Assembly (NCBI GenBank): GCA_021828295.1 | Contig: JAKASF010000001.1 | Coordinates: 2,702 to 66,701, forward strand | DNA length: 64,000 bases | From: Candidatus Micrarchaeota archaeon | GTDB lineage: Archaea > Micrarchaeota > Micrarchaeia > Micrarchaeales > CABMGC01 | Reading direction: 5' to 3' | Program-made: the position numbers and the translations under genes | In this document: piece by piece, positions 4,023 through 58,884 of the stretch | Layout: each line of letters begins with the position of its first letter | How positions within the stretch are numbered: the stretch's first letter is position 1 | The notes under the pieces: generated by a model | Database searches by the model: none | What the model saw: only the letters and a program-made list of their open reading frames with translations | What the model was told of the DNA's origin: nothing

Positions 4023-4026
4023 TCTG

Positions 4027-5642: not shown

Positions 5643-6011
5643 ATGGCGATAAACAAGTTGCAGGTCCTGCTTTATACCATTACTTTGGCTAGCATAGTGT
5701 CGGTTGTGCTAGGAGACAGCCTCCTGAGCTCGCTCTCTGCGACGCTCTGCGGCTTCGTCACAACCATAAGGACCATAATAGGCGTTCTCGCGCTTGCTCT
5801 CTTCCTTATAGGTGGAGTTCTATATGCAATAGCCCACTTCCTCCCAACATCTCTCGATTATAGGAAGAACCTGATGGGCTGGTCCACCGCAATGATAGTC
5901 GGAGGCATAATCGGCCTCGTAGTGGTCATAATAGCGCAGCCGCTGGTTACGCTCTTCATCCAAACGGGCAGCGCCGCCGGAGGGAGCGTCTCGAGCATCT
6001 TCTGCCCTTAA
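5643..6011 (+). CDS. Small two-helix membrane protein, VirB2/TrbC/CedA1-like pilin candidate (locus A)
   Basis: 122 aa. The order is a signal-like N-terminus (MAINKLQVLLYTITLASIVSVVLG), a hydrophobic helix (IIGVLALALFLIGGVLYAIAHF), a short basic loop (LPTSLDYRKNLMGW), then a second helix (STAMIVGGIIGLVVVIIAQPLV). It is a paralogue of 62893..63270: LFLIGGVLYAIAHFLPTS aligns with LFIVAGIFYAIGQLFPAT. Confidence 0.6.
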   Translation: MAINKLQVLLYTITLASIVSVVLGDSLLSSLSATLCGFVTTIRTIIGVLALALFLIGGVLYAIAHFLPTSLDYRKNLMGWSTAMIVGGIIGLVVVIIAQPLVTLFIQTGSAAGGSVSSIFCP

Positions 6012-6036
6012 ATAGCTTGCCAGCCAATCCAGCAGC

Positions 6037-7938
6037 ATGCGATTAGAGCGGGGCAGGCTTACCTATCTTGAGCTCTTTGTCCTGCTCGTGCTGTTCATAC
6101 TCAACGCCGGTATAGCGCTCCTCTACTTCTACATCTCTCCCGGCGCAGCCTTCTTCAGCGCGGCGTTCGTGCTCTCCGCCATAGCGTTCATCATCGCCTA
6201 CGTGCTCGGGCGCCACTCCGCGTCCCGCAGAGACGGTTCCATAGACCTGCTTCACGCCCTCTTCTCGCTCTCTCTTTTCTCGTACCTGATGTCCTTCCTT
6301 ACTGCTGGAGATGCGGCACTAGGTCTCGCTGTCAAGTTCATCATCTCGCTGCAGTCCATGGGCCTCTGGCTGGTGCTCCTCATCCCCATATTCTTCCTCT
6401 CCTTCACAAGCGTCTACTTCCTGAGGAAGGAGCGCAGGAGCAACCCCGCTGCAAAGCTCGCGCTGCTTGCAGTGGTCTTGCTGATTCTTATCCTGTACTA
6501 CTTCGTTGCGCTCAAGGGCATCTTCACCGCCGATGACGAGGAGCTGCTCAAGCTGACCAGCGTCTCGATGCTGCTCAACGGCACCAACCCCTACGCCTCG
6601 TCGATCTCCCTGCTCCTATACCAGCATACGTCTACGATAGGCGCCACGCTCACCACCGCAAACACCTTCCTCGGCACCATGGACTATCCGGCCCTCTTCT
6701 TCCTCTCCTTCGTGCCATTCTACTTCGCGGCGCAGCCTGTCATAGGAAGCCTCAACACCGTATACGGACCCCTGCAGTTCAGCACCTTCCTCTTCATACT
6801 CATCGTTGCGTTCACGCTCCTGCTCAGGCAGAGGCAGCTTATGCGGCCGCAGCTCACGCTCATGCTCGTCTTCGTTCTCGCCGCCACGGAGCTGTCTTCC
6901 ATAACCACCTACCTCATGCTTGCGCTTCTGCTCATCGCCTACGCGAAGATAGAGTCGAGATATGCGTGGCTTCCCCTCGGACTCTGCCTCTCGCTGCAGC
7001 AGGAGCTCTGGCTGCCAGTCTTCCTGCTCTTCGCCTACTCTTTCAACAACCAGGGATTCGGGAGAGGCATGCGCAACGCGATCGGCGCAGCCGTGGTCTT
7101 CCTGGTATTCAACGCCTACTTCATAGCCATAAATCCCGAAGCCTACTTCGGCTCCATCTTCGGCACGCTCAACCAGCTCATCATGCCCTTCAACCCCTCG
7201 CCCATCGCCTTCCTCATGCTCAAGTCTTACCAGCTGCCGCTCACCTCCTATCCAGTGGTCTTCGAGGCGCTTGCGCTCCTGCTCGGGCTCGCGTTCCTCT
7301 ACCTCAACAGGAAGCCGCTGATTCCCCTCTTCGGCCTGCTGCCATTCCTTGTGCTCGACCACATACTCGTCTCCTACTACGCCTTCTTCCTCTTCTTCCT
7401 GCTCTTCGCGCTCTTCACCTACGACCGCGAGAATCGCGCGGGATGGATAGAGAAGCGGCTGCGCGAGCACAGGCGCGGGTTCTTCGCCCTGCTCGCCATC
7501 ATCGCGCTCTCCACCCTGATCTTCGTCTATGCATCGCACTCGGCATACGAGCGGAACTTCAGCATTGGCGTGGTCAACCAGACGCTGTCGGTCAACAGGA
7601 CGAGCAACACCACAGTGCTCGACGCGCAGCTCGTCTACAGCAACATGAGCAACAGCACTCTCTACGTCTTCGCTTTCAAGTACTACGGAGTATCGGCAGG
7701 CTTCTCAGGCCTGCTGAACCAGAGCCTGATAAGCGAACCGCAGGCCTGCCCCGGCGGCAACTACACCTGCCTGGTGAACGTGAACAGGATAGAGCTCGCC
7801 AGCTCCTCGGGCACCTATCCGCTGCGGCTCACCATACACTGGTCCAACGCCAGCGATGAGGTGAAGGACGTCGCCGTTGCACTGTACAACAGGCAGTACT
7901 TCTACGTTGCGGACAGCGTCGGGGCTTCCGGAGCCTGA
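6037..7938 (+). CDS. Large polytopic membrane protein, GT-C-type glycosyltransferase-like, with sequon-rich C-terminal ectodomain
   Basis: 633 aa with more than 12 TM spans. The loop motif DDEELLKLTSVSMLLNGTNPY resembles the acidic-loop/'G-x-NPY' feature of DUF2029/PMT-like GT-C enzymes. The C-terminus carries many N-x-S/T sequons. Confidence 0.45.
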   Translation: MRLERGRLTYLELFVLLVLFILNAGIALLYFYISPGAAFFSAAFVLSAIAFIIAYVLGRHSASRRDGSIDLLHALFSLSLFSYLMSFLTAGDAALGLAVKFIISLQSMGLWLVLLIPIFFLSFTSVYFLRKERRSNPAAKLALLAVVLLILILYYFVALKGIFTADDEELLKLTSVSMLLNGTNPYASSISLLLYQHTSTIGATLTTANTFLGTMDYPALFFLSFVPFYFAAQPVIGSLNTVYGPLQFSTFLFILIVAFTLLLRQRQLMRPQLTLMLVFVLAATELSSITTYLMLALLLIAYAKIESRYAWLPLGLCLSLQQELWLPVFLLFAYSFNNQGFGRGMRNAIGAAVVFLVFNAYFIAINPEAYFGSIFGTLNQLIMPFNPSPIAFLMLKSYQLPLTSYPVVFEALALLLGLAFLYLNRKPLIPLFGLLPFLVLDHILVSYYAFFLFFLLFALFTYDRENRAGWIEKRLREHRRGFFALLAIIALSTLIFVYASHSAYERNFSIGVVNQTLSVNRTSNTTVLDAQLVYSNMSNSTLYVFAFKYYGVSAGFSGLLNQSLISEPQACPGGNYTCLVNVNRIELASSSGTYPLRLTIHWSNASDEVKDVAVALYNRQYFYVADSVGASGA

Positions 7939-7982
7939 CGTGCTACTATTTTTAATGTTAATGCGTATGTGCTACTGGTTGA

Positions 7983-8714
7983 ATGGCCAGCCTGATCGAG
8001 GACGCGTGGGAGACGTACGCGAAGAACATAAGGCTAGTGCTCCTCTTCTCCATACCGTTCATAATCGCATTCCTCATTCCCGCTCTGGTTCCCGTGCCCA
8101 CGTACATCTCGAGCGGCGCCATCTTCCTGAGGACCGCTAGCATCTTCCTCAACCTCAACCCCGCGGCACTCGCGATAATAGTCATCTCCCTGTTCATCTC
8201 CCTGCTCTTCCTCAGCTTCGCCTTCGTGGCGATAAGCCTCATAGTAAAGGCCGAGAGAACTTTCACCAAGCACCCCGCAGCCGTGTTGCGCGGCGTGGAG
8301 CAGTATACGGGCAGGGTCTTCATAGTGCTTCTAGTGTATGCGCTCATCCTGCTTGGCGTCAATGTACTCGGCTACTTCCTCAACCTGCAGGGCCTGCTCA
8401 CTGCAATCGTGGGCTTCTTCCTCTTCATGGCCATCTTCTACGCGCCCACAGCTATTGTGATAGACAACAAGCGCATAGGCACGGCGCTCAACCAGAGCCT
8501 AGAGCTTGTGGCGAAGCAGCCCGGCTACTTCATCATGTGGGTCGTGGTGCTGGTCTTCGTTGTGGGCGTGGTCGACTTCGCTGTGATACACGCAACGGGC
8601 ACGCTGCTCTCCAGCTACATAATGCTCGTCCTGAACTCGCTCCTTATTCTTCCCTACTTCGTCATCTTCCAGGCCGAGGCCTACATGAAGAGGTTCTCGA
8701 TACTCAAGCATTGA
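7983..8714 (+). CDS. Polytopic membrane protein (243 aa), unknown function
   Basis: About 6 TM spans and no recognisable catalytic motif. It lies between the pilin-like gene and the paralogue array. Confidence 0.6.
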   Translation: MASLIEDAWETYAKNIRLVLLFSIPFIIAFLIPALVPVPTYISSGAIFLRTASIFLNLNPAALAIIVISLFISLLFLSFAFVAISLIVKAERTFTKHPAAVLRGVEQYTGRVFIVLLVYALILLGVNVLGYFLNLQGLLTAIVGFFLFMAIFYAPTAIVIDNKRIGTALNQSLELVAKQPGYFIMWVVVLVFVVGVVDFAVIHATGTLLSSYIMLVLNSLLILPYFVIFQAEAYMKRFSILKH

Positions 8715-8730
8715 CGCGAATCGGCTAGCC

Positions 8731-8738
8731 TATTTATA
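8731..8738 (+). promoter_or_regulatory. TATA box TATTTATA for the paralogue-array operon
   Basis: Centred about 33 nt upstream of the ATG at 8767. The track's ATG at 8740 abuts the box and so is an unlikely start. Confidence 0.45.
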
Positions 8739-8766
8739 GATGCGTATTTCAGTATGTGAAGAGAGA

Positions 8767-9930
8767 ATGAGGGGTAATCTTGCGCTTCTTCTCATTTCAA
8801 TTCTGCTGCTAGCCGGATCTGCGGCCGCAGCCCCCGCACCGACAAATCCGCTGACCTGCATCTCCTCCGCGCCGGCGATAGGCGGCAGCGCGATAAGCAT
8901 AGCGCTCGTTGCCCTACTCGTCTCGCTCAACGTAATCGCCATAGGCTACATAATCAGCAAGCTCGTGCCCGGGACAAAACTGGGCGACTGGGTGAGGAGC
9001 GAGTTCTGGGAGGTGGCAAAATCTGGCATGCTGATCGCCGGCGCGTTCGCCGCCATCGTGTTCATAGGCAACGTCTCCTCCATACTCGCCGGCCCCGGTG
9101 CCGTATCGGCTGGAACGACATCGAGCTTCGCGGCCTCCGCCTCTCTGGTCAACGGCGCATGCAGCTATCTCAACGGCGAGCAGGTCTTCATGTCAGATGC
9201 TTTCAACTATCTGCTAGGCATAGCCGGGAGCCTAGGCGCTCTGGCGCAGCTGCAGGTGAGCGCCTATTTCCCGTACCCTCCCGTGCCCGTGGGGTTCCTG
9301 CCGGTCGACTTCCAGTTCGGTTTCCGACTCAACCCGTACAAGAACGGCATGCTCACCGTCGTGTCCAAGACACAGTGGAAGTCGATCCTCGGAGACTCCA
9401 TCTACCTCATAGCGCTGCCTGTGTCGTTCATCATCTCGCTGCAGATCACAATGCTTCCCATACTCTACCTGCTGGGAATAGGCATGCTGATACCTATGGG
9501 GATAATCTTCCGGGCGTTCCCGTTCACCAGAGGCATAGGCGGAGCCCTGTTCGCCATTGGGGTCGGCGTTTCACTCATCTACCCTACGCTTCTGGTGCTG
9601 CTCAATGCCCCGGTCACCAGCGCGCTGCAGACCCTGAGCGCTCCGGAGGCGCAGTCCGGAGCCTGCAACTTCAATTGGCTTATATGCGGCCTTGCAAGCC
9701 CCCTCCTCTCGATGATTAGCTCGTTCCAGGGCATCGGCACCGCGTTCGCAAGCTTCAGCAGCATCTTTCCCGCGCTCAACGGCATACTCTCATACGCCGC
9801 GTTCATGATACTGCAGTTCGTACTTTTCGTGCTCGATCTCGCCATAACTTATTCGCTCGCCAACAACATAGCCGGAGTGCTAGGCGGCACGATAAGGCTG
9901 GAGATAGGAGGCAAGCTTAAGCTGAGGTAG
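8767..9930 (+). CDS. Polytopic membrane protein, array paralogue 1 (VirB6/TrbL/CedA-like candidate)
   Basis: Signal-like N-terminus MRGNLALLLISILLLAGSAAAAP. Family motif IIFRAFPFTRGIGGALFAIGVGVSLIYP. The C-terminal tail ...GVLGGTIRLEIGGKLKLR is shared with the other paralogues. Confidence 0.7.
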   Translation: MRGNLALLLISILLLAGSAAAAPAPTNPLTCISSAPAIGGSAISIALVALLVSLNVIAIGYIISKLVPGTKLGDWVRSEFWEVAKSGMLIAGAFAAIVFIGNVSSILAGPGAVSAGTTSSFAASASLVNGACSYLNGEQVFMSDAFNYLLGIAGSLGALAQLQVSAYFPYPPVPVGFLPVDFQFGFRLNPYKNGMLTVVSKTQWKSILGDSIYLIALPVSFIISLQITMLPILYLLGIGMLIPMGIIFRAFPFTRGIGGALFAIGVGVSLIYPTLLVLLNAPVTSALQTLSAPEAQSGACNFNWLICGLASPLLSMISSFQGIGTAFASFSSIFPALNGILSYAAFMILQFVLFVLDLAITYSLANNIAGVLGGTIRLEIGGKLKLR

Positions 9931-9931
9931 T

Positions 9932-11326
9932 GTGATGTTCGGCATAGCAAGTATACTGCTGGATGCGTCGACACCCAGCCCCACCGCCGCGTGCGGAGTC
10001 CAGGCGGCATCTGGCTGGCTCGGGATAGACGGTCTGGTGGTACTCGCCATAGTGACAGTTGCCGCGTTCATCTACGTGCTTGCAAACTTCCTTCCAGCGG
10101 CGAGGCGCGAGAAGCTGCGCGGCGCAGCGAACTACGAGATACTCGAGGCGCTCTTCAGCCTTGCCTTGGTGGTCGTGCTCTTCGTGGCGTGGTCAGCGGC
10201 GTGCAACATAGGCCCGCTCCTGACCCAGTCGACTACATCTACTTCAACGTATCAGGGGCTCTTCGGCGCAGACACGACGTATCTCGGCAACCTGCTCTAC
10301 CTCAACGGCGTCAACCTGGTCAGCAACCTCTACTCTACGTCGATAGGCTACATGATCGTTGCCAACATCTGGTACCTAGGCGCTACGGAAACCGCTAACT
10401 TCTTCGGCAGCAATCCGGTCAGCGTCCTCGGGAAGACGATCCCCGGAGCAACCTCGTCGCTGAACCCGCAGGTTGACGTCCTCTTCACCGAGTTCTCCGA
10501 ACTGTTCACCGCCATCTACGGCGCCCTGCTTGTCGGCGCTTTCAGCACCCTCTTCGTGCTCTCGTTCATCCTGCCCATAATAGAGGCCGGGGCCTTCGCC
10601 GTGGTCATACCCGTGGCGATAATAATGCGTTCGATCCCGTTCGCAGGCCCTGCGCTGAGGCGCACGTCCAACGCGTTCATAGCCTTGGCCATCGGCTTCT
10701 ATCTCGTGCTCCCCCTCATGATCGCATTCAACTCCTACGTCGCCACGTGCCTCAACATACCATACGGCGGCGGAACCGCCTCGTGCAACTACCTCAACAG
10801 CTTCCCTCAGATAAAGCAGTACCTTTCCGGCTATGCCAGCGTCGGCTCCCTCACCTCCGCAACAGCATCGATCTTCACGTCAACCGCAACGTCCGGCTAT
10901 GTCTCATCCAGCGGCTTAAGCGGGGTTAGCTGTGCCTCGCCAGACGACTACGTGTATGAGAGCACATGTGGGGATTCAAGCACCATAAAGCCCGGGAGCT
11001 GTCAACCCTTCTCATCTATCGAGAGCCAGGTCTGCGGAACGTACGCGATAAGCGGAACGAGCAGCAGCTACCTGCCCACAGGCGCGGCCACGCCGCTGAC
11101 CTTCTACAGCACCGCCTTCACCGGGCTTAACCAGTTCATCACGGAGATGTTCAACAGCCCCCAGGAGGCCGAGTACTACGGCAGCGCGGTCGCGTCCTAC
11201 CTCTTCCTGAGCGTAGTGATGCTTGCGATAGACCTGGCGATAACGGTCGGGTTCGTCTACGGCCTCTCAAAGGCCCTGGACTCTTTCGGCCAGCTCTTCG
11301 GCAGCGGGCCGGTATTGGGTGAATGA
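9932..11326 (+). CDS. Polytopic membrane protein, array paralogue 2, with one Cys-rich YVYE module
   Basis: GTG 9932/ATG 9935, 1 nt after the previous stop. Motif IIMRSIPFAGPALRRTSNAFIALAIGFYLVLP. Loop CASPDDYVYESTCGDSSTIKPGSCQPFSSIESQVC. Confidence 0.7.
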   Translation: MMFGIASILLDASTPSPTAACGVQAASGWLGIDGLVVLAIVTVAAFIYVLANFLPAARREKLRGAANYEILEALFSLALVVVLFVAWSAACNIGPLLTQSTTSTSTYQGLFGADTTYLGNLLYLNGVNLVSNLYSTSIGYMIVANIWYLGATETANFFGSNPVSVLGKTIPGATSSLNPQVDVLFTEFSELFTAIYGALLVGAFSTLFVLSFILPIIEAGAFAVVIPVAIIMRSIPFAGPALRRTSNAFIALAIGFYLVLPLMIAFNSYVATCLNIPYGGGTASCNYLNSFPQIKQYLSGYASVGSLTSATASIFTSTATSGYVSSSGLSGVSCASPDDYVYESTCGDSSTIKPGSCQPFSSIESQVCGTYAISGTSSSYLPTGAATPLTFYSTAFTGLNQFITEMFNSPQEAEYYGSAVASYLFLSVVMLAIDLAITVGFVYGLSKALDSFGQLFGSGPVLGE

Positions 11327-13227
11327 TGCAGCGCTTTGTGTTTGTCTTTGCTCTGCTCGCGTTCGCGGGCCTCTTCGGCAGCGGAGTCGCGGCAAGCACT
11401 AGCAGCACCCTCATCACTCCCTACTCGGCCTTCCAGGGATGGCTCCCCATAGTCTTCCTCGGCATACTCGTCAGCATAATGATCACCGCCTTCTACTACG
11501 TGCTCGGTGTCCTGCTTGACAACAAGAACGTGAAGAGCAGGGCCGTGGGAGAGTTCGCTCAGGCCACCGGCACAGCCATGCTCGTGGTGATAATACTGGG
11601 AGTCTTCGCCCTCATGGGCACCGGGCAGCTCTCGTTCGTATCGCTGCTCTCGCAGTCTTCGCTCGGCACCGTCTGCGGCCAGCTATACAGCTCGCCCCTA
11701 ACGCTGCTGGCCAACCAGCAGCCATCTGGAGTGCCCACGGCCACTAACACGATATGCGAATCCGCAACAGGTTCGCTCGGGGATCCGGTCACGAATAGCG
11801 TGGATTACGGACTGTACGCAGCGTACATAGTGATGGACAACCTCACAACCCAGGCTGCGAACAACATGAACGCGATGTACCTGACAGAGGGTTGGCTAGG
11901 CTTCCTTGCAAACTTCAACGCTTACGTGCAGGTCTGTGCCCCGCAGGACACCTGCATAGTGCCCCTGGCGCCCAGGGTGTTCAACATCCAGACGCAGTAC
12001 ACGCCCCTCGCCGGCTACACCTCTCTCACAACGCTGCTCAACCCGGTAGAAACAGAGTCGGTGCTCACATTCTATATCCTCTTCATACAGATGCTCGTGA
12101 TAACCATATTCCTCTACGCCTGGCCGTTCATTCTCGCGGCAGGCATACTGCTCAGGTCGACGTTCTTCACCAGAAAACTGGGTGGACTCCTGGTTGCGAT
12201 AACGCTTGCCATGGTGGTGGTGCTCCCTCTTACATATCTACTAGAGTACACCGCTTTTACGAACCTGAACCTTGGCCCGATAGGTGCAAGCAGCATACCC
12301 AACCAGGAGCTCTACGAGCAGAACGGCGCAAGCGTGGCAGTATACGGCATGCCTTCGCAGGGATACGTGCCAGCGTCTGCGGCAGGCGCGACCGGCTGCG
12401 CACCTTCCGATTATGTTTATTCTACAACATGCACCGCTCCATATTCCATAGGCAGCTCGCCGGCATGCGTGCCGTTCTCGCAGGCGCAGACGAGACTATG
12501 CCTCCAGGGCGGTTACGTGTCTGCTACGACAACCCAGAACCTACACAGCTCGTGTGTCGGTTCTTCGCACGGTAGTGTAGGATATGTGTATGAAACCCAG
12601 TGCGGTGTTCCCGATACCGCAGGTCAGCAATGCTCGTCCGACCCTTCACCTTCAAGCCTCTGCCCGACCAGCGGCTACGTGCTTTCGTCTTCGCTCTCCA
12701 CAAATCTCTGCGACCCGAGCACGCCCTACATATACGAGACCACGTGCGGAGACAGCTCTAGCATTGTGTCAAGCTCCTGCACAGCCAATCCTGTAAATTC
12801 AGGCACGGGGCAGGTGAACCTGTGCGTCGCGCCGCTCGACGCCAACATCAACTTCTTCGTGCTGCCCAACGTCGGCCAGGTGACCGGCTACTACGGCTGC
12901 AACGTTGGCGGTGACCTGCTCGCCAACGAGCTGGAGTTCGCCTCATGGTACCTCACTCCGCTCAATGCGTACTATGCGTTATCGCTTGCCGGGGGCCTGA
13001 TCGGGTCGCTGCCGCAGACTCCGCTCAACGGTTTCATACCAAACACGTGCACCCCAACAAACGCGCTCAACGCCGTCTTCGCGCTCGCAAACTCGTACGG
13101 TATAGTCTTCGTCTCCAGCATCTTCACTCTCATATTCAACGCCCTCATCGCGATCGCCGCTGTCTCGGGGCTGGCGACGCTGATGGGCGGTGACACAAGC
13201 ATACTCGGAATGGGTAGACTGATATGA
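11323..13227 (+). CDS. Polytopic membrane protein, array paralogue 3, with three Cys-rich modules
   Basis: ATGA start/stop overlap with paralogue 2. Motif ILLRSTFFTRKLGGLLVAITLAMVVVLP. Loops CAPSDYVYSTTC..., GYVYETQCGVPDTAGQQC..., PYIYETTCGDSSSIVSSSC... Confidence 0.7.
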   Translation: MMQRFVFVFALLAFAGLFGSGVAASTSSTLITPYSAFQGWLPIVFLGILVSIMITAFYYVLGVLLDNKNVKSRAVGEFAQATGTAMLVVIILGVFALMGTGQLSFVSLLSQSSLGTVCGQLYSSPLTLLANQQPSGVPTATNTICESATGSLGDPVTNSVDYGLYAAYIVMDNLTTQAANNMNAMYLTEGWLGFLANFNAYVQVCAPQDTCIVPLAPRVFNIQTQYTPLAGYTSLTTLLNPVETESVLTFYILFIQMLVITIFLYAWPFILAAGILLRSTFFTRKLGGLLVAITLAMVVVLPLTYLLEYTAFTNLNLGPIGASSIPNQELYEQNGASVAVYGMPSQGYVPASAAGATGCAPSDYVYSTTCTAPYSIGSSPACVPFSQAQTRLCLQGGYVSATTTQNLHSSCVGSSHGSVGYVYETQCGVPDTAGQQCSSDPSPSSLCPTSGYVLSSSLSTNLCDPSTPYIYETTCGDSSSIVSSSCTANPVNSGTGQVNLCVAPLDANINFFVLPNVGQVTGYYGCNVGGDLLANELEFASWYLTPLNAYYALSLAGGLIGSLPQTPLNGFIPNTCTPTNALNAVFALANSYGIVFVSSIFTLIFNALIAIAAVSGLATLMGGDTSILGMGRLI

Positions 13228-14570: not shown

Positions 14571-14571
14571 G

Positions 14572-15621: not shown

Positions 15622-15631
15622 GGATGTCGGA

Positions 15632-16813: not shown

Positions 16814-16857
16814 AAAGATTATAAATGAGCGATGCATGAACCTATACGGGGTCTCCC

Positions 16858-17688: not shown

Positions 17689-17696
17689 GTGAATGC

Positions 17697-18521
17697 ATGG
17701 ATGAACGCACGATGATTTATCTTGGCTCGACGTGCCTGCTCGCGATAGTGATAATGGCGAGCTCCGCGGAATTCGGCAGCCTGTGGATAATCGCCTTCTT
17801 CCTTTCGATACTCGCCATAATGCTAATCTTCATACTCAACTACGCCGATTTCGTCGTGTTTCCGCTGTTCACATCGCTGCTGGGGGTCAAGATAGTGCCG
17901 GCGAAGAACTACTACATGCCAAAGGACAGCAGCAGCATAGTCAAGAACGTGGGCGGCATCTACTATGCAACGGGCTACCTCACAGCCAACGTCTACAACT
18001 ACGTCTTCGCCGCGGAGAGCGTGGACGAGGACGAGGCCGCGAAGCTGTCCGAGGGCCCCGACAAGTGGGAACGCATAGTAATGAACGCCGGCTTTCCGTT
18101 CAGGTTCAGCTTCGTCTCCGTCGCCGAGGACGTGCAGCGCTACAGGGACGAGCTGGAGGGCAAGCGCGGCGTCCTGGAGTTCCAGCTTTCCAAGGAGATG
18201 AGCAGCAGCACGCCGAGCGAGCTCACGATACAGGACCTGCAGAGGAAGATGAACGTGATAGACGCGAGGATAAACAGGCTGTCTGCTGGGGAGCGTCCCG
18301 TCGACTCCATCATGTATGTGGAGAGCACGGCCGTCGGGGTGAGCGAGAAGGAGGCGATAGACTCGCTGTCGAACCAGCTGGCTCACCTGCAGACACTGTT
18401 CAGCGCCTTCGACCTCAGCATAACGCGCGTGGTCGGCAGGGAGCTCTACCACCTCTTCACCTACAACTACGTGGTGCCCACCCGCGATGCGCTCGCGGAC
18501 ACGTTCAGCGCAGAGAGGTAG
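17697..18521 (+). CDS. 2-TM + soluble-domain protein, copy 2
   Basis: Two N-terminal TM helices. AGFPFRFSFVSVAEDVQRYRDELEGKRGVLEFQLSK aligns with ADFPFEFGLGVRSVEHVRILDALEEKRRLKEIELAR of the locus B protein. Confidence 0.65.
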   Translation: MDERTMIYLGSTCLLAIVIMASSAEFGSLWIIAFFLSILAIMLIFILNYADFVVFPLFTSLLGVKIVPAKNYYMPKDSSSIVKNVGGIYYATGYLTANVYNYVFAAESVDEDEAAKLSEGPDKWERIVMNAGFPFRFSFVSVAEDVQRYRDELEGKRGVLEFQLSKEMSSSTPSELTIQDLQRKMNVIDARINRLSAGERPVDSIMYVESTAVGVSEKEAIDSLSNQLAHLQTLFSAFDLSITRVVGRELYHLFTYNYVVPTRDALADTFSAER

Positions 18522-18561
18522 ATGTTATAAGGTTTGCCCAAGAATCAGAAAAGTTGATGCG

Positions 18562-20067
18562 ATGAGCCTCGTAAGACTGCAGAACATAATGAGCAACGAG
18601 CTTGCAAAGCGCACCATATTCAGCAGGCCCCCGGAGCCGCCGCAGGAGTACCTGCTCAACGATCCCACGGAGTCCATATTCATAGGCATAACGAAGCTCT
18701 TCCACGTTCCGTTCACCTGGACCTTCGCCAGCCTCACGAACCCGCACGTCGCCGTCGTGGGAATAACAGGCGCAGGAAAGAGCTTCTTCGTCAAGACCTT
18801 CCTGACAAGAGCCAGCTACATCTGGAACACGAACGCGATAATAATCGACTGGGCCGGGGAGTACAAGGCCTGGGTCAAGCAGAGCGGCGGCGTCGTGGTC
18901 TCCCTGGGCAAGGGCGACTACATAAACATAATGGACCTATCGGGGATGAAGCCGGTTGACAGATCGAAGCAGATAATAGGATCGTTCGAGATACTCACTG
19001 ACATAAGCGACTACCCCGAGCAGAAGAGGCTCACGGTCGAGGCAGTGGAGCAGGCCTATGTCAACTTCGGTTTCGCTATGGCGGACCCTCCGCCCCCTGG
19101 CAAGGAGTCGCCGACGCTGAAGGACGTGATCGGCCTGCTGGAGGAGAAGCTGCAGGAGGGAACGTACCAGTACCCTGCAGAGCTGGAGAACGCGGTCTAC
19201 AGGCTGAGGCAGTTCGCAAGGGAGGGCGAGGACTACTTCGCGAGGAAGAGCACCATAGATCTCGGCAAGCTCGCGTCGTCGGGGCTTGTTGCCATCGACC
19301 TGTCCAACCTTCCAGACGAGAAGTTCAGGGCGCTCGCCGCGCTCTTCATACTCCAAACGCTCAAGGAGAAGATGCGCATGGAGGGATGGAGCGCCTCCAA
19401 GGGCCTCAAGGCGCTTGTCGTGCTCGACGAGGCCTGGAAGGTCGCGAGCGACGAGAGGAGCGACGCAGTGATGATAGTCAGGGAGGGAAGGAAGTACCAG
19501 TTCGGGCTGATAGTCGCATCGCAGAACCCCACGGACATAAACGAGGCCATCTTCTCGAACGTCGGCACCACTATAATGCTCAGGATAAGGTTCGAGAAGT
19601 TCCTGGACTACCTGCAGGGCTCGCTCAACTTCTCAGACTTCATGCGCAAGGAGATAAGCAAGTTCGGAGTGGGGCAGGCGGCCATTGACATGTCCTTCCA
19701 GACCAGCGTGCAGTTCCCCGAGGTCTTCCTGATAGAGAGGGTCGTGGGCGAGATACCCCTCGACGTGTACACAATCACCATAGCTGACGTTCTCAGCCAG
19801 CAGGAGCTTTCCGACGCGAACGTGCAGAAGGAGTACTACTTCGAGAAGATAGACCTCAACTCAAAGTTCATACAGTCCAACGTCAACTCCGAGGCTATAA
19901 ACAACATCTTCAAGGAGCTGGACACGAGGAACCGCATGGTAGACGTGCGCAGCCTCGTGCAGGTGATGAGCAACGAGAAGGTCGGCAAGGACACGATAGT
20001 CGAGCTCCTCAGGAGCGTCGGGCTCTCCGACGCTGTCATCACCAAGGTCTTCGTATACGTAACATAG
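18562..20067 (+). CDS. VirB4/TrbE/CedB-like P-loop ATPase (FtsK-HerA superfamily), locus A
   Basis: Walker A VAVVGITGAGKSFFVK. IIIDWAGEY. Walker B ALVVLDEAWKVASD. LIVASQNPTDI. I moved the start from the track's 18487 to the ATG at 18562 (MSLVRLQ...), because the upstream extension is Arg-rich and overlaps the previous gene. Confidence 0.8.
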   Translation: MSLVRLQNIMSNELAKRTIFSRPPEPPQEYLLNDPTESIFIGITKLFHVPFTWTFASLTNPHVAVVGITGAGKSFFVKTFLTRASYIWNTNAIIIDWAGEYKAWVKQSGGVVVSLGKGDYINIMDLSGMKPVDRSKQIIGSFEILTDISDYPEQKRLTVEAVEQAYVNFGFAMADPPPPGKESPTLKDVIGLLEEKLQEGTYQYPAELENAVYRLRQFAREGEDYFARKSTIDLGKLASSGLVAIDLSNLPDEKFRALAALFILQTLKEKMRMEGWSASKGLKALVVLDEAWKVASDERSDAVMIVREGRKYQFGLIVASQNPTDINEAIFSNVGTTIMLRIRFEKFLDYLQGSLNFSDFMRKEISKFGVGQAAIDMSFQTSVQFPEVFLIERVVGEIPLDVYTITIADVLSQQELSDANVQKEYYFEKIDLNSKFIQSNVNSEAINNIFKELDTRNRMVDVRSLVQVMSNEKVGKDTIVELLRSVGLSDAVITKVFVYVT

Positions 20068-20074
20068 TGCTCGC

Positions 20075-20371
20075 ATGGCCGGAACCTTCACCATAAGCAG
20101 GATAGAGCTAAAGCGCATGCTCACCACCCTCGGCGTGAGCGAGCGCAGCATAGACGGGCTCGTGGCCGAGCTCAACAAGATGCACAGGCACGCCAACGCA
20201 GTTGCCTTCGCGGGCATGCTGCAGAAGGCGGGGCTGAAGGAGGGCGACGTGGCCAACGTGCTGAGGCGCATAGGCATAGACGACATCTCGATAACGAGCG
20301 TATTCGACACGCTCGAGGAGGAGCGCATAAGGAGCGCCTACGGGCGGGTTGTCGACATAGTGCTTGAGTAG
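20075..20371 (+). CDS. Small helical protein (98 aa) built from 'LxxxG[ILV]' modules
   Basis: MLTTLGVSERSIDGLV, MLQKAGLKEGDVANVLRRIGIDDISITSVF. The same module occurs at the C-termini of both locus ATPases (LLRSVGLSDAVITKVF; LRKLGIGEDELADSF). Confidence 0.55.
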   Translation: MAGTFTISRIELKRMLTTLGVSERSIDGLVAELNKMHRHANAVAFAGMLQKAGLKEGDVANVLRRIGIDDISITSVFDTLEEERIRSAYGRVVDIVLE

Positions 20372-20380
20372 GAGGTATAT

Positions 20381-20737
20381 TTGCCAAAGACTGTTTGCAT
20401 AATATGCGGGAAGGAGAAGAGAGGCATAGACGTAGCCGACGACCTCGTGCTCGACTCTATAAGGTGGTTCAAGCAGAACGTAACGCACAACGAGCGCGGC
20501 AACAGGCTCGTGGTGTGCAGGGAGTGCTATCCGAAATACGCGGCTAGCAGGAAGAAGTTCGAGTCGAGGCAGAGGCTCTACCTTGGCCTTGGCATAGTCT
20601 TCGCGCTGCTCAACGTGACGCTTTCCAGGACGCTTGCCAGCGTTGGCATCTCGCTGCTCATCCTGCTCCTCTTCATCTGCTTCTCCCTGATGAGCTACTC
20701 GCCAAGGATAAACATAAAAAAGCAACATAGTCAATAG
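20381..20737 (+). CDS. Zinc-ribbon (CxxC...CxxC) protein with two C-terminal TM helices
   Basis: TTG start 4 nt after a GGAGGT (20371-20376). CIICGKEK...VCRECYPKY, then LGLGIVFALLNV / ISLLILLLFICFSLM. Confidence 0.55.
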   Translation: MPKTVCIICGKEKRGIDVADDLVLDSIRWFKQNVTHNERGNRLVVCRECYPKYAASRKKFESRQRLYLGLGIVFALLNVTLSRTLASVGISLLILLLFICFSLMSYSPRINIKKQHSQ

Positions 20738-20767
20738 TAATCTGTTGGCAGAGATGGGCGTGAGCTA

Positions 20768-21502
20768 GTGCAGGAAGAGGCATCGGCTGCTGAGGCGGAG
20801 CCGAAGGTCGAGCAGGTCGAGTTCCCCGGCAGGCTACTAACCAGCGTGGACGACGTGAAGCAGAAGCTTTCGGGCATACCCTTCTACACCCTTCAGGCAG
20901 GCGCAGGCGGCCTGGAGATAGCAAGGGTAGAGAGCAGGAACATACACAAGAAGCCTTTCCTGTTCTACATAATAGACATAGGCTCAAGCTCGCTCAAACT
21001 CACATACTCGATAGTGCCTGGAAGCAGCGAGAGGCTTAGGCGGGCCGAGGTGATAAGGAACCTGGCGTCGCTGCTCTCTGTCGTGAGCGAGAGCTTCAAG
21101 ATAGACGATAGCAAGTTCTTCCAGTACGTGGACTCGGTGCTGGGCAGCCTGATGGAAGGCCTATCGCAGAGCTACAGCACGCTGTTCAACAAGTACGACG
21201 CGCTGCTCAACGAGTACGTGGAGGCGAAGAAGCTGCTCAGGGAGCTCGAATCCTCGAACAGGAACCTCACCATACAGACGAGCAAGCTGAGCGAGGACAC
21301 CAAGGCGCTCACCGCGCAGCTCAAGTCGCTGGAGACGTACTCCGACGAGGCCCTCATGTCGATGGTCCAGGAGTGGATAGAGGTGCACAACAGCTCCGTC
21401 GACATAGGCGAGTTCTCGAAGACGTACAAGGTCCCCGAGCCGAGGATCGAGCAGATACTCGACAAGATGGTCTCCATGGGCTACATAGAGCTGAAGAGTT
21501 AG
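20768..21502 (+). CDS. Coiled-coil protein with C-terminal winged-helix (locus A)
   Basis: GTG start, 244 aa. The central region LLNEYVEAKKLLRELESSNRNLTIQTSKLSEDTKALTAQLKSLE is a coiled coil. The C-terminus IGEFSKTYKVPEPRIEQILDKMVSMGYIELKS is wHTH-like. It is a homologue of 59358..60041. Confidence 0.6.
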   Translation: MQEEASAAEAEPKVEQVEFPGRLLTSVDDVKQKLSGIPFYTLQAGAGGLEIARVESRNIHKKPFLFYIIDIGSSSLKLTYSIVPGSSERLRRAEVIRNLASLLSVVSESFKIDDSKFFQYVDSVLGSLMEGLSQSYSTLFNKYDALLNEYVEAKKLLRELESSNRNLTIQTSKLSEDTKALTAQLKSLETYSDEALMSMVQEWIEVHNSSVDIGEFSKTYKVPEPRIEQILDKMVSMGYIELKS

Positions 21503-21511
21503 CTGGTTCGC

Positions 21512-21667
21512 ATGAAATATTTGGTAACAATAAACAGAAAGTACCAGTACGTCAGAGTCTACAACGTGCTGAAGAAGATGAACGAGAGCACAAACCCCCT
21601 CTCCAAGGCCGCGGAGAGGCTGATAGGCAGGTTCGTGCTCAAGAAGAAGGGCGAGGGCCTTGAGTGA
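21512..21667 (+). CDS. Small basic protein (51 aa), hypothetical
   Basis: Below the ORF-track size cut-off: MKYLVTINRKYQYVRVYNVLKKMNESTNPLSKAAERLIGRFVLKKKGEGLE. It fills the gap between neighbouring genes exactly. Confidence 0.3.
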   Translation: MKYLVTINRKYQYVRVYNVLKKMNESTNPLSKAAERLIGRFVLKKKGEGLE

Positions 21668-21679
21668 CGGGTGTGCCGC

Positions 21680-24022
21680 ATGCGTCCGGTAGCGAAGATA
21701 GCGATCGTGGTCGCGGCCTTCGCGGTGCTGCTCGCGGGCCTGGCGTTCTACGTTAGCAGTACGTTCTCTCAGTTCTCTCACGCCCCAGCGCCCCAGACGC
21801 AGCTCTCCGGCCCAATCACGCTTTCCGTCTCCGAGCCGTTCAGCGGCACCTACTCCATCAACGGCAGCGGCGCTGCAGTCTACTCGCTCCTGTCCTACTC
21901 TTCGGCAAACGCCACAAACGCCACAGTAACGATGAGCATCTACCCGAGGGATCCGGTATCGAGAATATATCTGCTCAACGTGAGCTCCACGTGCGTCGCG
22001 TGCTTCAACGAGAACCAGCTGAACTCGGAGCTGCAGAGCGAGTTGCTCTACTACAATCTCGTGGCAAACGGGACAAGCTTCCAGTACATAAACCAATCTG
22101 CGCTCTCCTCGGTGCCCGGCGGCTCGATAGTTATCGTACCGTCTGGCCTACTCCCGTTCTTCATGCTCAACGGCACCTCGTCGCTCATCTCGCTGCTCAA
22201 CAGGGGCGACACCATAATATACGCGGGTCTCAATTTCAGCAGATCTGTCGGCCCCAACGGGATAATCTTCATAAGCAGCCAGGCGATGCTCAACCAGCTC
22301 GGCCTCGCCAATCTCGACACCGTAGCGGTCAACTCGTCCCCGGTTGCAGGCAGCCAGGGCATAAACCAGAGCTTCAAGAAACCGACGTTCGCGTTCGCCG
22401 GCGGCAGCCTTTATGGCAACGCCACATTTGCCGCATCTGAGAACGGCACTGTGATAGCGTTCTCAAACTACCCCACCGGCTCGTGGAACTCGCCGGGCAG
22501 CATGGCCGCCGACATAGCCAGGGCCATAGCATCGGATTTTTGGATCCCTCGTCTGAGCGGCAGTGCCAGCACGCTCGATCTCGCCTCCAGGAGCGCGGGC
22601 AACCTTGGCATATTCTCTCCTGTCAGCGTGCCCGCGAGGAGCACAGCAAACCTGACCAGCCTGGTCAACGGCAGCTATACGGTGCTTACAATTACGGCGA
22701 TGAATGCGCAGTCGTCTGCAAACAGGAGGCTCGTCTCCCGCAACACGTACGAGCCCCTGGGTAGCGTGGGCGTGGCTTCCACTGTGGGCTTCACGCAGCT
22801 CGTGCCTGTGCAGATGCAGGTCAATAACCTGAACACGAGCCTGCTGGTGCATCTGGACGTGTACGACCTGAACCTGAGCTACGTGAGCTCCATCCCCATC
22901 GGTTTCATCAACAGCACGCTGGGCATAGTCAAGTTCCACGCGTTCACGCTTCCGAGCGGCTACTACCTTCTCGAGCTGAAGGACTTCAACAACAGGTACT
23001 TTGGGGGGGCCCTATTCCACATGGAGAACGTTACGATAACTCCTGTGGCTGTTGACTTCGCCAACGGGACCTTCTCGTTCTCGGTGTACAGCAATGGCCA
23101 GCCCGTGTCAAACGCCACCTACAGCGTCAACATAAACGGCCTCTACGGGAGCGAGGGGCAGGTATTCAACGGCGCGATAGACTACACGCTGCCGCATGGA
23201 ACTCTCATAGCCCACGGCGCAGAGAACTTCAACTTCGCGATACTAAACCAGAACTACACCTATTCCGCGCAGTACCAGTCGACGCAGCTCTACATCCCCA
23301 CCATATACATAGAGTTCGGCGTGGCCATACTGGTGGTGGTCCTCCTCAACCTAATACTCAAGCCGCCCAACCGCGACGAGTTCTACATCGACGTGCCAGA
23401 GTTCCCGCCTTCGAAGCGAGAGAAGGTGAAGGTCACTGAGAGTTCTGTGCTCGGCGTCTTCGACAAGGTCAACTACTACCACCGCTGGAAGTACATGCCG
23501 CTAACCGCAGACGAGCTCAAGCTCGGCATAGGAAACAACATACGCGTCAACAACATGCCCATCTCGATAACCATGCAGAACGCGAACGCGGCGCTGTCTG
23601 CGCTGGTGCAGGACAAGTCCGTCTCAGCGGCCTCGGGCTACTACGCGCCCACCGCATGGGTGACCGCGTCGGGGCACAGCGTCGAGTACCTTGCCGTGTT
23701 CAGGAAGCTGCGCGACTACTGCGTCGAGCACGCCATACTCTTCACGGACCTCGACTCCAACAGCACCGCAGACATGCTTATAACAAAGGACGGCAAGCAG
23801 ATGAGCGTCTTCATCTATTCGAGCGGCGCAAGGATGCACAAGCTCATAATATCGAGCGACTCCAAATCCGCCATCGTCTTCCTGAACGACGAGGCGGCGA
23901 GGGACTTCACCGCAGAGCTCTACAACTCATATGGAAAGCAGGCCGAGGTGCTGAAGCTTGGCATAGAGTACAACTACGTCAAGCTCGTGGACAGCGACCA
24001 CCTCGATCAGCTTGCGCTCTGA
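21680..24022 (+). CDS. Bitopic surface protein, sequon-rich ectodomain + cytoplasmic C-terminal domain (780 aa)
   Basis: N-terminal anchor/signal MRPVAKIAIVVAAFAVLLAGLAF. The ectodomain of about 540 aa carries many N-x-S/T sequons. A second TM (IEFGVAILVVVLLNLIL) is followed by a soluble tail of about 220 aa. No recognisable domain. Confidence 0.6.
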   Translation: MRPVAKIAIVVAAFAVLLAGLAFYVSSTFSQFSHAPAPQTQLSGPITLSVSEPFSGTYSINGSGAAVYSLLSYSSANATNATVTMSIYPRDPVSRIYLLNVSSTCVACFNENQLNSELQSELLYYNLVANGTSFQYINQSALSSVPGGSIVIVPSGLLPFFMLNGTSSLISLLNRGDTIIYAGLNFSRSVGPNGIIFISSQAMLNQLGLANLDTVAVNSSPVAGSQGINQSFKKPTFAFAGGSLYGNATFAASENGTVIAFSNYPTGSWNSPGSMAADIARAIASDFWIPRLSGSASTLDLASRSAGNLGIFSPVSVPARSTANLTSLVNGSYTVLTITAMNAQSSANRRLVSRNTYEPLGSVGVASTVGFTQLVPVQMQVNNLNTSLLVHLDVYDLNLSYVSSIPIGFINSTLGIVKFHAFTLPSGYYLLELKDFNNRYFGGALFHMENVTITPVAVDFANGTFSFSVYSNGQPVSNATYSVNINGLYGSEGQVFNGAIDYTLPHGTLIAHGAENFNFAILNQNYTYSAQYQSTQLYIPTIYIEFGVAILVVVLLNLILKPPNRDEFYIDVPEFPPSKREKVKVTESSVLGVFDKVNYYHRWKYMPLTADELKLGIGNNIRVNNMPISITMQNANAALSALVQDKSVSAASGYYAPTAWVTASGHSVEYLAVFRKLRDYCVEHAILFTDLDSNSTADMLITKDGKQMSVFIYSSGARMHKLIISSDSKSAIVFLNDEAARDFTAELYNSYGKQAEVLKLGIEYNYVKLVDSDHLDQLAL

Positions 24023-52712: not shown

Positions 52713-52783
52713 GCCAGGATGGCAGATCGGCTATGCGACCGCCTGCAGAGCGGTAAAGGAGGGTTCAACTCCCTCTCCTGGCT
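52713..52783 (+). tRNA. tRNA-Cys (anticodon GCA)
   Basis: Hand-folded, 71 nt. Acceptor GCCAGGA/TCCTGGC. Anticodon arm ACCGC-CTGCAGA-GCGGT. T arm GAGGG-TTCAACT-CCCTC. An upstream TATA-like GATTAAATAG is present. Confidence 0.85.
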
Positions 52784-52795
52784 CTGCTGCTCCCG

Positions 52796-53743: not shown

Positions 53744-53838
53744 TGCTAATTTCCTTATTAGCGTGTCCTGTGAAGAACAGAGTAACTACTGACTCGTGAT
53801 GAAGTCTATATCGGCTGAGGACAAGGTTGAATGATAAG

Positions 53839-58692: not shown

Positions 58693-58700
58693 GTTGTGCG

Positions 58701-58883: not shown

Positions 58884-58884
58884 T

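Follow-up and report, generated by a model that had tools for sequence, protein, structure and literature searches.

Organization of the locus

The window analyzed here is a 64,000-nt stretch of DNA from a Candidatus Micrarchaeota archaeon (assembly GCA_021828295.1, contig JAKASF010000001.1, positions 2,702 to 66,701, forward strand). It is contig 14 of a metagenome-assembled genome (MAG) of ~0.77 Mb that belongs to the Micrarchaeota (DPANN) and is 88% complete, and the same DNA occurs in mine-drainage metagenomes. The organism is a very small symbiont of acid mine drainage. We describe a locus at 5643-24022 of this window that likely encodes a chromosomal relative of type IV secretion systems (T4SSs), akin to the archaeal Ced and Ted machineries. 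The locus comprises 17 open reading frames (ORFs), g1 to g17, all on the plus strand (Table 1). A first-pass annotation of the sequence had counted about 18 co-directional genes; the shared direction and the coordinates were reproduced, the number was not.

The genes in the core of the locus are tightly packed. ATGA overlaps join g5 to g6 and g6 to g7, one nucleotide lies between g4 and g5 and between g7 and g8, and short gaps were found at g8/g9 (10 nt), g10/g11 (8 nt), g12/g13 (7 nt), g13/g14 (9 nt), g15/g16 (9 nt) and g16/g17 (3 nt). Gaps of 25-52 nt precede g2, g3, g4, g10, g12 and g15. The earlier description of the junctions as ATGA overlaps or gaps of 1-12 nt thus holds within the core, where the gaps span 1-10 nt, and leaves out the longer ones. 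A TATA-like box is found ~30 nt 5' of the start codon at g1, g4, g10 and g12. Co-translation across the core had been proposed from these junctions; since four of the gaps contain TATA-like boxes, several transcription units appear as likely as one operon. A scan of the locus for bacterial promoters and terminators is uninformative for an archaeon.

Family and PDB matches confirmed the flanking genes named in the first-pass annotation, which are MoxR-like and DUF2079-like genes upstream and the gene for topoisomerase VI subunit B (Topo VI-B) downstream. The GC content of the locus is the same as that of its flanks, and no tRNA gene was found at the locus borders.

Table 1 Features of the locus, its flanks and related loci (aa, amino acids; HMM, hidden Markov model; TM, transmembrane segment; positions in the window unless a contig is given)
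Feature	Position	Strand	Assignment	Match or remark
MoxR-like AAA+	3105-4022		Upstream flank	PDB 2r44, 5.6e-61
DUF2079	4015-5553		Upstream flank	Family match, 3.4e-27
g1	5643-6011	+	VirB2/TrbC-type pilin candidate, 122 aa	
g2	6037-7938	+	633-aa polytopic protein, sequon-rich C-terminal ectodomain	
g3	7983-8714	+	243-aa membrane protein, ~6-7 TM, accessory	
g4	8767-9930	+	VirB6-like paralogue 1 of 6	Joint HMM 1.2e-77; own clade, two families, support 100
g5	9932-11326	+	VirB6-like paralogue 2 of 6, Cys-rich extracellular insert	Joint HMM 1.2e-58
g6	11323-13227	+	VirB6-like paralogue 3 of 6, Cys-rich large loop	
g7	13224-14570	+	VirB6-like paralogue 4 of 6	
g8	14572-15621	+	VirB6-like paralogue 5 of 6	
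g9	15632-16813	+	VirB6-like paralogue 6 of 6	The paralogue with a structure model
g10	16858-17688	+	TM hairpin and VirB4-N-terminal-domain-like soluble domain	Paralogue of g11
g11	17697-18521	+	TM hairpin and VirB4-N-terminal-domain-like soluble domain	
g12	18562-20067	+	FtsK-HerA-superfamily P-loop ATPase, 501 aa	RecA-like core and C-terminal helical domain
g13	20075-20371	+	98 aa, stand-alone copy of the ATPase C-terminal helical domain	
g14	20381-20737	+	Cytoplasmic Cys4 zinc ribbon and C-terminal TM hairpin	
g15	20768-21502	+	Cytoplasmic coiled coil and C-terminal winged-helix-like domain	
g16	21512-21667	+	51-aa basic protein	12 K+R versus 4 D+E
g17	21671-24022	+	Bitopic 783-aa envelope protein	
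Topo VI-B	24007-25614	minus	Downstream flank, convergent	1.1e-52
Surface protein	56257-58422	minus	721 aa, S/T- and sequon-rich; minimal system	
Two small ORFs	within 56257-63270	minus	Minimal system	
h4	60038-61324	minus	ATPase, minimal system	9e-37; DUF87 1e-13; TrwB_AAD_bind 6e-12
h3	61153-61941	minus	TM and VirB4-N-terminal-domain-like, minimal system	g11 HMM 8.7e-10
h2	61889-62896	minus	Single VirB6-like, minimal system	Joint HMM 1.6e-40
h1	62893-63270	minus	Pilin, minimal system	Pilin HMM 2e-10; TrbC 0.0024
Arrays, genome G045	C2:86-93 kb; C3:77-85 kb		Tandem VirB6-like arrays, other orders	
Arrays, genome G046	C1:117-124 kb; C14:14-25 kb		Tandem VirB6-like arrays, other orders	
Arrays, genome G082	C2:24-31 kb; C1:147-154 kb		Tandem VirB6-like arrays, other orders	
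Arrays, genomes G126, G100			Tandem VirB6-like arrays, other orders	

A pilin candidate with a conserved cysteine pair

The sequence and hydropathy of g1 reveal a signal peptide followed by two hydrophobic helices with a short basic loop between them. The same architecture was seen in an alignment of 16 g1 orthologues and in 12 further pilins from other orders. Nine of the 16 orthologues match the Pfam family T4SS_pilin (PF18895, best E 1.6e-5), and six match TrbC/VirB2 (PF04956, best E 9.7e-8). Together with the architecture, these matches support the earlier description of g1 as a small VirB2/TrbC/CedA1-like hairpin protein.

Two cysteines of g1, C36 and C121, bracket the helical hairpin. 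Across the 16 aligned orthologues C121 is invariant and C36 is present in at least 90%. The pair also occurs in all 12 of the further pilins of the large-system type from other orders (loci L117, L123, L125, L128, L129 and L130), with one cysteine ~10 residues ahead of helix 1 and another at or near the C-terminus. Pilins of the minimal-system type (h1 of the second system in the window, described below, and L120:12071-12316) contain no cysteine at all.

An apparently split VirB4

The ATPase g12 has all three motifs that had been read in it: GITGAGKS (Walker A), VVLDEAWK (Walker B) and ASQNPTD. It scores above the Pfam cut-offs for DUF87 (5.8e-16), AAA_10 (1.6e-13) and P-loop_TraG (2.6e-11), and its E-values with NCBIfam models are 1.8e-19 for CedD, 8.9e-19 for VirB4-like CD1110 (in one stretch, 38-371), 1.3e-17 for CedB and 1.8e-15 for HerA. 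The curated HerA cut-offs lie far above its scores (56.4 versus 800 bits and 52.5 versus 970 bits). The first-pass annotation had expected g12 to match VirB4/TrbE/CedB rather than HerA. The best models are CedD, CD1110 and CedB, but g12 alone is not separable from HerA by sequence. No HAS-barrel was matched in g12 at E <= 1. Family searches found neither NurA nor Mre11/Rad50 among the locus products, and the NurA model found none in the 88%-complete genome.

The P-loop of g12 begins at residue 67, a VirB4-type N-terminal domain is not part of the protein, and the alignment to VirB4-type models runs in one stretch along their C-terminal ATPase half. Judged from these alignments, g12 is an ATPase core of CedB/CedD/VirB4/HerA grade and corresponds to the C-terminal ATPase domain of VirB4, CedB and CedD. 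The 98-aa product of g13 matches positions 424-500 of the ATPase-family HMM (E 2.9e-10), and the same arrangement is found in other orders.

The two genes upstream of the ATPase, g10 and g11, had been described as paralogous proteins with two TMs and a soluble domain. BLAST shows no similarity between them, and the paralogy was recovered at the level of the families (hhalign 97.6%, E 4.5e-12, 256 columns); g10 orthologues are present in 24 of 26 loci. The earlier description had missed the fold of the soluble domain. AlphaFold2 (AF2) models were made for two proteins, g9 (pLDDT 74) and g11 (pLDDT 77), and the g11 model consists of a TM hairpin and an alpha/beta domain. Its top Foldseek matches are TrwK/VirB4 (7o42, E 0.01, probability 0.99-1.0). 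When residues 70-270 of the model were aligned to TrwK 221-380 with VIA-align, Z was 10.9 with a root-mean-square deviation (rmsd) of 3.5 Å over 150 residues, and in a comparison with 48,161 PDB chains VirB4/TrwK was the sole full-domain match (Z 8.5, 162 residues). The matched region, TrwK residues 220-382, is the second half of the TrwK N-terminal domain (Z 8.2-10.9, rmsd 3.3-3.5 Å). PDB sequence-profile searches with g1, g9, g11 and g15 returned nothing significant.

Since g10 and g11 have a VirB4-N-terminal-domain-like fold and g12 consists of the ATPase core only, VirB4 appears to be split here across genes, with membrane-anchored N-terminal-domain-like proteins g10 and g11 predicted to bind a separate ATPase. 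A predicted complex of g12 with the soluble domain of g11 (64-274) scored 0.01, which gives no verdict and is evidence neither way. The N-terminal-domain-like protein and the ATPase are encoded by separate genes in all 40 loci examined. Two ORFs of 1,047 aa and 1,054 aa were considered as fusions of the two and rejected; they are intein-bearing ATPases.

These inteins, of ~510-530 aa (Intein_splicing and LAGLIDADG_3), are found in ATPase orthologues of two other Micrarchaeia lineages (L129:6488-9628, minus strand; L130:2665-5826, plus strand). One is inserted at Walker A and the other near Walker B. The source genome also contains two further DUF87/HerA-family ATPase genes, at C16:62797-63072 and C25:38080-38682 (ORFs of 522 and 725 aa).

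Six VirB6-like paralogues

The products of g4-g9 are distant paralogues, with pairwise BLAST E-values of 1e-4 to 1e-8 and identities of 24-31%. A joint HMM matches all six at 1e-58 to 1e-77, in line with the six tandem paralogous polytopic proteins noticed earlier, and the motif R-x5-R-x2-GG is common to them. Here and in the minimal system the proteins are polytopic (at least 5 TM) and encoded beside pilin and VirB4-like ATPase genes. Public data contain at least 3,301 representative clusters of this family.

With the g9 model as query, Foldseek placed TrwI/VirB6 at ranks 1 and 2 (8rt9_F and 8rtd_L; E 0.3, probability up to 0.9), and alignment to TrwI with VIA-align gave Z 9.0-9.9 over 225-249 of ~265 residues. 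In a Foldseek-independent comparison of g9 with the 48,161 PDB chains by VIA-align, the first rank was TrwI (7o3v_F, Z 9.8, 228/261 residues) and the second was DotA, a Dot/Icm channel protein (9ngy, Z 8.5); no other chain reached Z 8. The ESM Atlas returned Micrarchaeota hypotheticals and one 'CedA1 domain' cluster at 0.88 for g9, which we treat as leads only.

The N-terminus of the paralogues is related to the pilin. The g1-pilin profile can be aligned with helices 1 and 2 of the paralogue profile (hhalign 83.6%, E 8e-6, 55 columns), the N-terminus of g5 aligns with g1 (BLAST E 0.001), and the minimal-system pilin h1 matches the joint HMM of the paralogues at 6e-7. Homology between the pilin and the N-terminus of the channel protein has been reported for CedA1/CedA and VirB2/VirB6, and TedA has been tied to VirB6 and CedA by profile-profile comparison only (PMC9905601). 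The g9 fold matches and the pilin-like N-terminus agree with the earlier proposal of a TrbL/VirB6/CedA-like array. The VirB6 assignment of g4-g9 combines a moderate helical fold match with context, and the fold match is not decisive alone.

In a tree of 92 paralogues, each array position forms one clade (support 99-100) that mirrors the family split; g5 has its own clade (support 100). Positions 2, 5 and 6 of the array in another order pair with g5 (support 88), g8 (95) and g9 (96), respectively. Given one clade per position and the pairing across orders, the six-fold set is ancient and its members are not interchangeable.

The large loop of g6 carries three or four Cys-rich repeats of the YVYE[ST]xCG type, and g6 contains 18 cysteines. 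The repeat type, C-x-[PS]-x-x-YVYE[ST]xCG-x(6-12)-C, is present in large extracellular loops of g5, g6 and g7 (window positions 10900-11050, 12350-12830 and 13620-13730, respectively), and BLAST ties these segments to each other at 44-58% identity.

Conservation across the Micrarchaeia

The first-pass annotation had suggested a survey of related genomes for co-occurrence and array copy number. A g12 orthologue was found in 41 of 41 relatives, with 62-91% identity across the order. Public relatives with an orthologue include Ca. Micrarchaeum sp. A_DKE (ATPase identity 70%) and a Mancarchaeum MAG. At the level of the class, 134 of 151 sampled genomes have a g12 orthologue (E <= 1e-40), with 50-60% identity in other orders, so that ATPase identity falls with taxonomic rank. 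Of the 26 loci compared, which come from three families of the order, 24 are colinear for g1 and g3-g17, counting three that are cut by contig ends. The two exceptions are a locus with an inversion and one that holds g12-g17 only. At least 13 loci, from two families, have Topo VI-B as their convergent neighbour. In view of this distribution, the colinearity and the Topo VI-B neighbour, a recently acquired mobile element is excluded. The locus is a vertically inherited core system of Micrarchaeota.

In other orders, the genes for the N-terminal-domain-like protein, the ATPase, (g13), g14, g15 and g17 form a module that is always together, sometimes with one to three pilin genes upstream. The VirB6-like family is encoded elsewhere in these genomes, as two tandem arrays of ~6-7 genes each (Table 1), with 12-17 matches per genome. 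One further family resembles the window in having two pilins, six paralogues and two N-terminal-domain-like genes.

ATPase-bearing contigs with 69-73% identity were also found in MAGs titled Saccharimonadales, Methanothrix and Acidiferrales (L047, L069 and L081). Their placement there is probably binning contamination.

A second, minimal system in the same window

A minimal paralogous system lies on the minus strand at 56257-63270, with pilin, VirB6-like, N-terminal-domain-like and ATPase genes in the same order as in the main locus (h1-h4, Table 1). Its type of ATPase recurs in nearly all relatives.

Just upstream of the S/T-rich surface-protein gene of this system, on the plus strand at 53827-55359, is a gene whose 510-aa product has an EpsH domain of the exosortase/archaeosortase type (5.5e-11). 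It lies next to tRNA-Cys (52713-52784) and tRNA-Ile (55399-55474) genes.

Comparison with known systems

The nearest analogues are Ced and Ted, as had been suggested at the outset; both resemble the locus in composition and logic. CedD and CedB are among the best models for g12. Ced of the Sulfolobales imports DNA and consists of the pilin CedA1, the VirB6-like CedA/CedE and the VirB4-like CedB/CedD (PMC9905601, PMC11868833). Like the Micrarchaeota locus, it is chromosomal and relaxase-free, combines a VirB2-like pilin, a VirB6-like polytopic protein and a HerA-clade/VirB4-like ATPase, has a pilin homologous to the N-terminus of its channel protein, and distributes the VirB4 N-terminal function over two paralogues (CedB/CedD there, g10/g11 here). 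Each of CedB and CedD combines, on a single chain, a TM segment with part of a VirB4-like N-terminal domain and a HerA-clade ATPase (PMC11868833), whereas in the locus the ATPase is encoded apart from the TM and N-terminal domain. Ced has one or two VirB6-like proteins and the locus has six, together with the extra conserved genes g3 and g13-g17, in a DPANN phylum and without the Ups partner. With scores of about a tenth of the Ced equivalog cut-offs, g12 is not a Ced orthologue.

Ted of the Thermoproteales (TedC, TedA and TedB; PMC9905601) likewise has a pilin with a cleavable signal peptide, and its set of pilin, VirB6-like protein and VirB4-like ATPase equals the minimal system of the window minus the N-terminal-domain-like gene. 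TedB, in contrast, is a full-length VirB4 (PMC9905601), and the ParA/VirC1, HerA and Rad50 neighbours of Ted loci have no counterpart among the locus products. The likeness to Ted is one of composition. The locus differs from both Ced and Ted in three respects: its VirB4 is apparently split, its VirB6-like set has six members, and it carries the conserved module g13-g17.

The inner-membrane complex of the R388 T4SS (TrwI/VirB6, TrwK/VirB4 and TrwM/VirB3; 7o3v, 7o41, 7o42 and 8rtd) contains the structures that g9 and g11 match in fold, TrwI and TrwK, respectively. Unlike R388, the locus has no counterparts of VirB5, VirB7-B11 or VirD4; VirB6 is a homopentamer and VirB4 a single polypeptide there, while six distinct paralogues are encoded here.

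Several tandem, divergent VirB6-family genes (rvhB6) are also present in the rvh T4SS of the Rickettsiales. The rvh T4SS (PMC2653234, PMC7648143) is a chromosomal system of reduced-genome obligate symbionts with duplicated components, as in the locus; it differs in belonging to diderm bacteria, in its full VirB scaffold and in VirB6 paralogues that are recognisable TrbL-family members. The rvh expansion is independent of the Micrarchaeota array, and the parallel is a functional one. The T4SS of the Patescibacteria (CPR) resembles the locus in that it occurs phylum-wide in ultra-small episymbionts, is mostly relaxase-free and centres on VirB4 with VirB2-like pilins, and it has been inferred to be co-opted for the symbiotic lifestyle (PMC12102498). 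It differs in its bacterial origin, in a full-length, detectable MPF-FATA VirB4 and in having no six-fold VirB6-like array.

In the openly accessible literature searched on T4SSs of DPANN and Micrarchaeota, no description of the system was found. Micrarchaeota genome papers treat only type IV pili and Sec/Tat, and public names of the proteins are 'hypothetical protein', 'ATP-binding protein' and 'HerA-like ATPase'.

Identity of the system and alternative explanations

We consider it likely that the locus is a derivative of a T4SS or conjugation apparatus of the Ced/Ted kind, carried on the chromosome and vertically inherited as part of the Micrarchaeota core. On the same level of confidence, our preferred reading is a domesticated machine of the Ced/Ted type that has no relaxase, forms a pilus or conduit and contains a fixed, hetero-oligomeric platform of VirB6-like subunits. 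Several observations weigh against this. The g1 protein itself falls below the Pfam T4SS_pilin threshold (E 0.018, 15.6 versus 26.6 bits). None of 119 paralogue sequences matches TrbL or any recurrent Pfam family, and the TrbL/VirB6 model PF04610 finds nothing in the genome. The profile searches from which a TrbL/VirB6 hit was expected gave none; in the same Pfam searches, the paralogues did not match a known permease or transporter family. The VirB6 match of g9 (Z 9-10, rmsd ~6 Å) is within the range that helical proteins reach by chance (up to Z ~13). The scores of g12 are far below the cut-offs for Ced (CedD 69.8 versus 600 bits, CedB 63.7 versus 700) and for VirB4 (CD1110 67.2 versus 325, TraC 45.8 versus 567, TIGR00929 40.2 versus 643), are nearly equal on HerA models, and its best PDB sequence matches are HerA (8wiv, 2e-13; 4d2i, 5e-13), with VirB4 4ag5 at 4e-9. 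Counterparts of VirB8, VirB3 and the hydrolase were not identified. Finally, in several other orders the paralogue arrays lie apart from the ATPase module, so functional coupling is inferred from the lineages in which the two are neighbours.

Some of these points would fit a membrane complex around a HerA-type ATPase that is unrelated to T4SSs, and that might pump the chromosome or other DNA at division, or export and assemble g17 or the S-layer, the pilin-like and VirB6-like resemblances being generic to helical membrane proteins. The best Pfam match of g12 is DUF87/HerA (5.8e-16), HerA structures lead its PDB matches, g12 orthologues are annotated by JGI as 'DNA helicase HerA-like ATPase', and g4-g9 have no sequence link to TrbL and a helical fold match with Z below 13. 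We nevertheless hold this explanation to be unlikely. The N-terminus of g12 ahead of the P-loop amounts to only ~55 residues, without a HAS-barrel match, and NurA is absent from the locus and was not found in the 88%-complete genome. The VirB4 N-terminal-domain fold of g10/g11 is a non-helical, full-domain and VirB4-specific match, the two best-ranked structures for g9 are both T4SS channel proteins, the TrbC/VirB2 and T4SS_pilin matches recur across orthologues, and the order of pilin, VirB6-like and VirB4-like genes is found twice in the window. A HerA machine outside the T4SSs is disfavoured by the VirB4 fold, the recurrent pilin matches and the repeated gene order.

That the locus is an integrated conjugative element or a plasmid remnant, with archaeal conjugation genes of the MPF-FATA-like type, is in our estimate extremely improbable. 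The ATPase does have distant tblastn matches (23-28% identity) to TraC, to TraG-type conjugative-transposon ATPases and to plasmid DUF87 genes, 170 of 319 matching plasmids are predicted to be conjugative, and the Mia14 genome paper speculated on conjugative elements with many membrane proteins (PMC5498576). However, none of the 17 products matched a relaxase, VirD4, an integrase or a replication protein in family searches, which together with the vertical chromosomal context upholds the earlier judgement that this is not a conventional conjugative plasmid or integrated element. There is no border tRNA and no GC shift, and gene order and the Topo VI-B neighbour are kept across families. The ATPase is carried by 134 of the 151 class genomes with an identity that tracks taxonomy, the paralogue trees mirror the family split, and a scan of IMG/VR viral contigs with the ATPase profile found no relative.

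A further possibility is a host-interaction organelle, in which a ring of the six paralogues together with g17 would form an envelope barrel or docking pore for the uptake of lipids, nucleotides or cytoplasm, with the ATPase serving assembly or gating. Cryo-electron tomography of the Micrarchaeota member ARM-1 revealed a 21-nm barrel-like envelope structure of unknown composition that docks intercellular nanotubes (PMC11329633), and ARMAN cells have been seen joined to Thermoplasmatales by pilus-like connections (PMC5498576, PMC5864196). The system belongs to the core gene set throughout the class, in genomes of 0.7-1.5 Mb, and epibiotic growth of Patescibacteria is reported to require their relaxase-free chromosomal T4SS (PMC12102498). 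The connection of the locus to the imaged structures is hypothetical, though, and the ARM-1 nanotubes appeared to be host-derived (PMC11329633). We rate it as quite unlikely in its own right; it describes another function of the same machinery rather than another identity, and so overlaps with the Ced/Ted-like pilus or conduit machine.

A proposed mechanism

For the Ced/Ted-like machine, we suggest the following mechanism. The g1 protein would be a Sec-exported VirB2-type pilin that is held in the membrane as a helical hairpin. TrbC and VirB2 pilins undergo head-to-tail cyclisation. In g1, a disulfide between the terminal cysteines may join the N- and C-termini and so mimic this cyclisation. 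The g4-g9 proteins would be six non-interchangeable subunits of a fixed hetero-oligomeric platform or channel, possibly a ring with one of each that is matched to a hexameric motor. Through their membrane hairpin and VirB4-N-terminal-domain fold, g10 and g11 would tether the hexameric g12 core to this platform. ATP hydrolysis by g12 might then extract the pilin and polymerise it into a pilus or conduit, or drive a substrate through. We envisage g13, g14, g15 and g16 as accessories at the cytoplasmic face, possibly in substrate recruitment, where the g15 winged helix might act on nucleic acid; g17 would span the envelope and expose a glycosylated ectodomain. As no relaxase or coupling protein was found, the default guess for the cargo is DNA, or another macromolecule, passing between the DPANN cell and a partner cell as in Ced/Ted; we give equal weight to uptake from a host or attachment to it.

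A bolder version of this mechanism is that a one-each VirB6-like hetero-hexamer on a hexameric split-VirB4 motor is the envelope structure, be it a pilus, a conduit or a docking barrel, by which DNA or cytoplasmic material passes between Micrarchaeota (perhaps other DPANN as well) and their hosts, as an archaeal counterpart of the T4SS on which Patescibacteria depend for episymbiosis. We put it forward as a speculation that is doubtful.

The means by which DPANN archaea bind to their hosts and draw material from them are a standing question, and pilus-like links, nanotubes and a barrel have been imaged without assigned genes (PMC11329633, PMC5498576). The locus is a concrete, class-wide gene set with orthologues in the cultivated Ca. 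Micrarchaeum sp. A_DKE, and a candidate apparatus by which Micrarchaeota may exchange material with other cells. If our reading is correct, domesticated T4SS-type machinery extends beyond the Crenarchaeota, a natural split VirB4 is available that would be useful for separating the roles of the N-terminal and C-terminal domains, and the locus shows a VirB6-type platform that has become fixed in the form of six different subunits. The analysis also defines a large unannotated family of membrane proteins, that of g4-g9.

Accessory and neighbouring genes

The first-pass annotation had included g2 in the locus as a GT-C-like protein, and this was not sustained. A gene of this kind stands between g1 and g3 in some relatives and is absent or displaced in others, and we therefore take g2 as a variable neighbour and not a member of the system. 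Its family search gave no significant match, the best being Wzy_C_2 (E 0.069), so that its GT-C likeness is at most tentative. A paralogy of g2 with the upstream DUF2079 protein was considered and rejected, as the two have no similarity. By comparison, g3 is conserved within the order, with orthologues in 20 of 26 loci (37-78% identity), and its sole match is sub-threshold (NCBIfam BPSS1780-family, 8.2e-5). Between the pilin and N-terminal-domain-like genes of the other-order loci, only six VirB6-like paralogues were matched, in a comparison that included no g3 profile.

The four small genes downstream of the ATPase, noticed earlier as encoding a 98-aa helical protein, a zinc ribbon with two TMs, a coiled coil with a winged helix and a 51-aa basic protein, were borne out as g13-g16. 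In g14, C6, C9 and C46 are invariant, and the gene adjoins the ATPase gene in every locus of the class examined. A likeness of g14 to VirB3 (E 0.041) was dropped because the match was not recurrent among 26 orthologues. The 25 orthologues of g15, which is conserved across the class, have recurrent sub-threshold matches to ZapB (23), PCI (19), EAP30 (19), FeoC (9) and Rrf2 (9). We detected g16 in 19 of 26 loci, with 31-72% identity.

The last gene, g17, encodes the sequon-rich bitopic surface protein anticipated at the first pass. Searches of Pfam and PDB profiles gave no family or structure match for g17, and the ESM Atlas returned nothing for its C-terminal domain. The protein consists of an N-terminal anchor, a sequon-rich ectodomain of ~515 aa, a TM at 545-563 and a cytoplasmic domain of ~220 aa, and 21 of its 22 N-x-S/T sequons fall in the predicted ectodomain. 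It is kept across the class, and its cytoplasmic domain is highly conserved.

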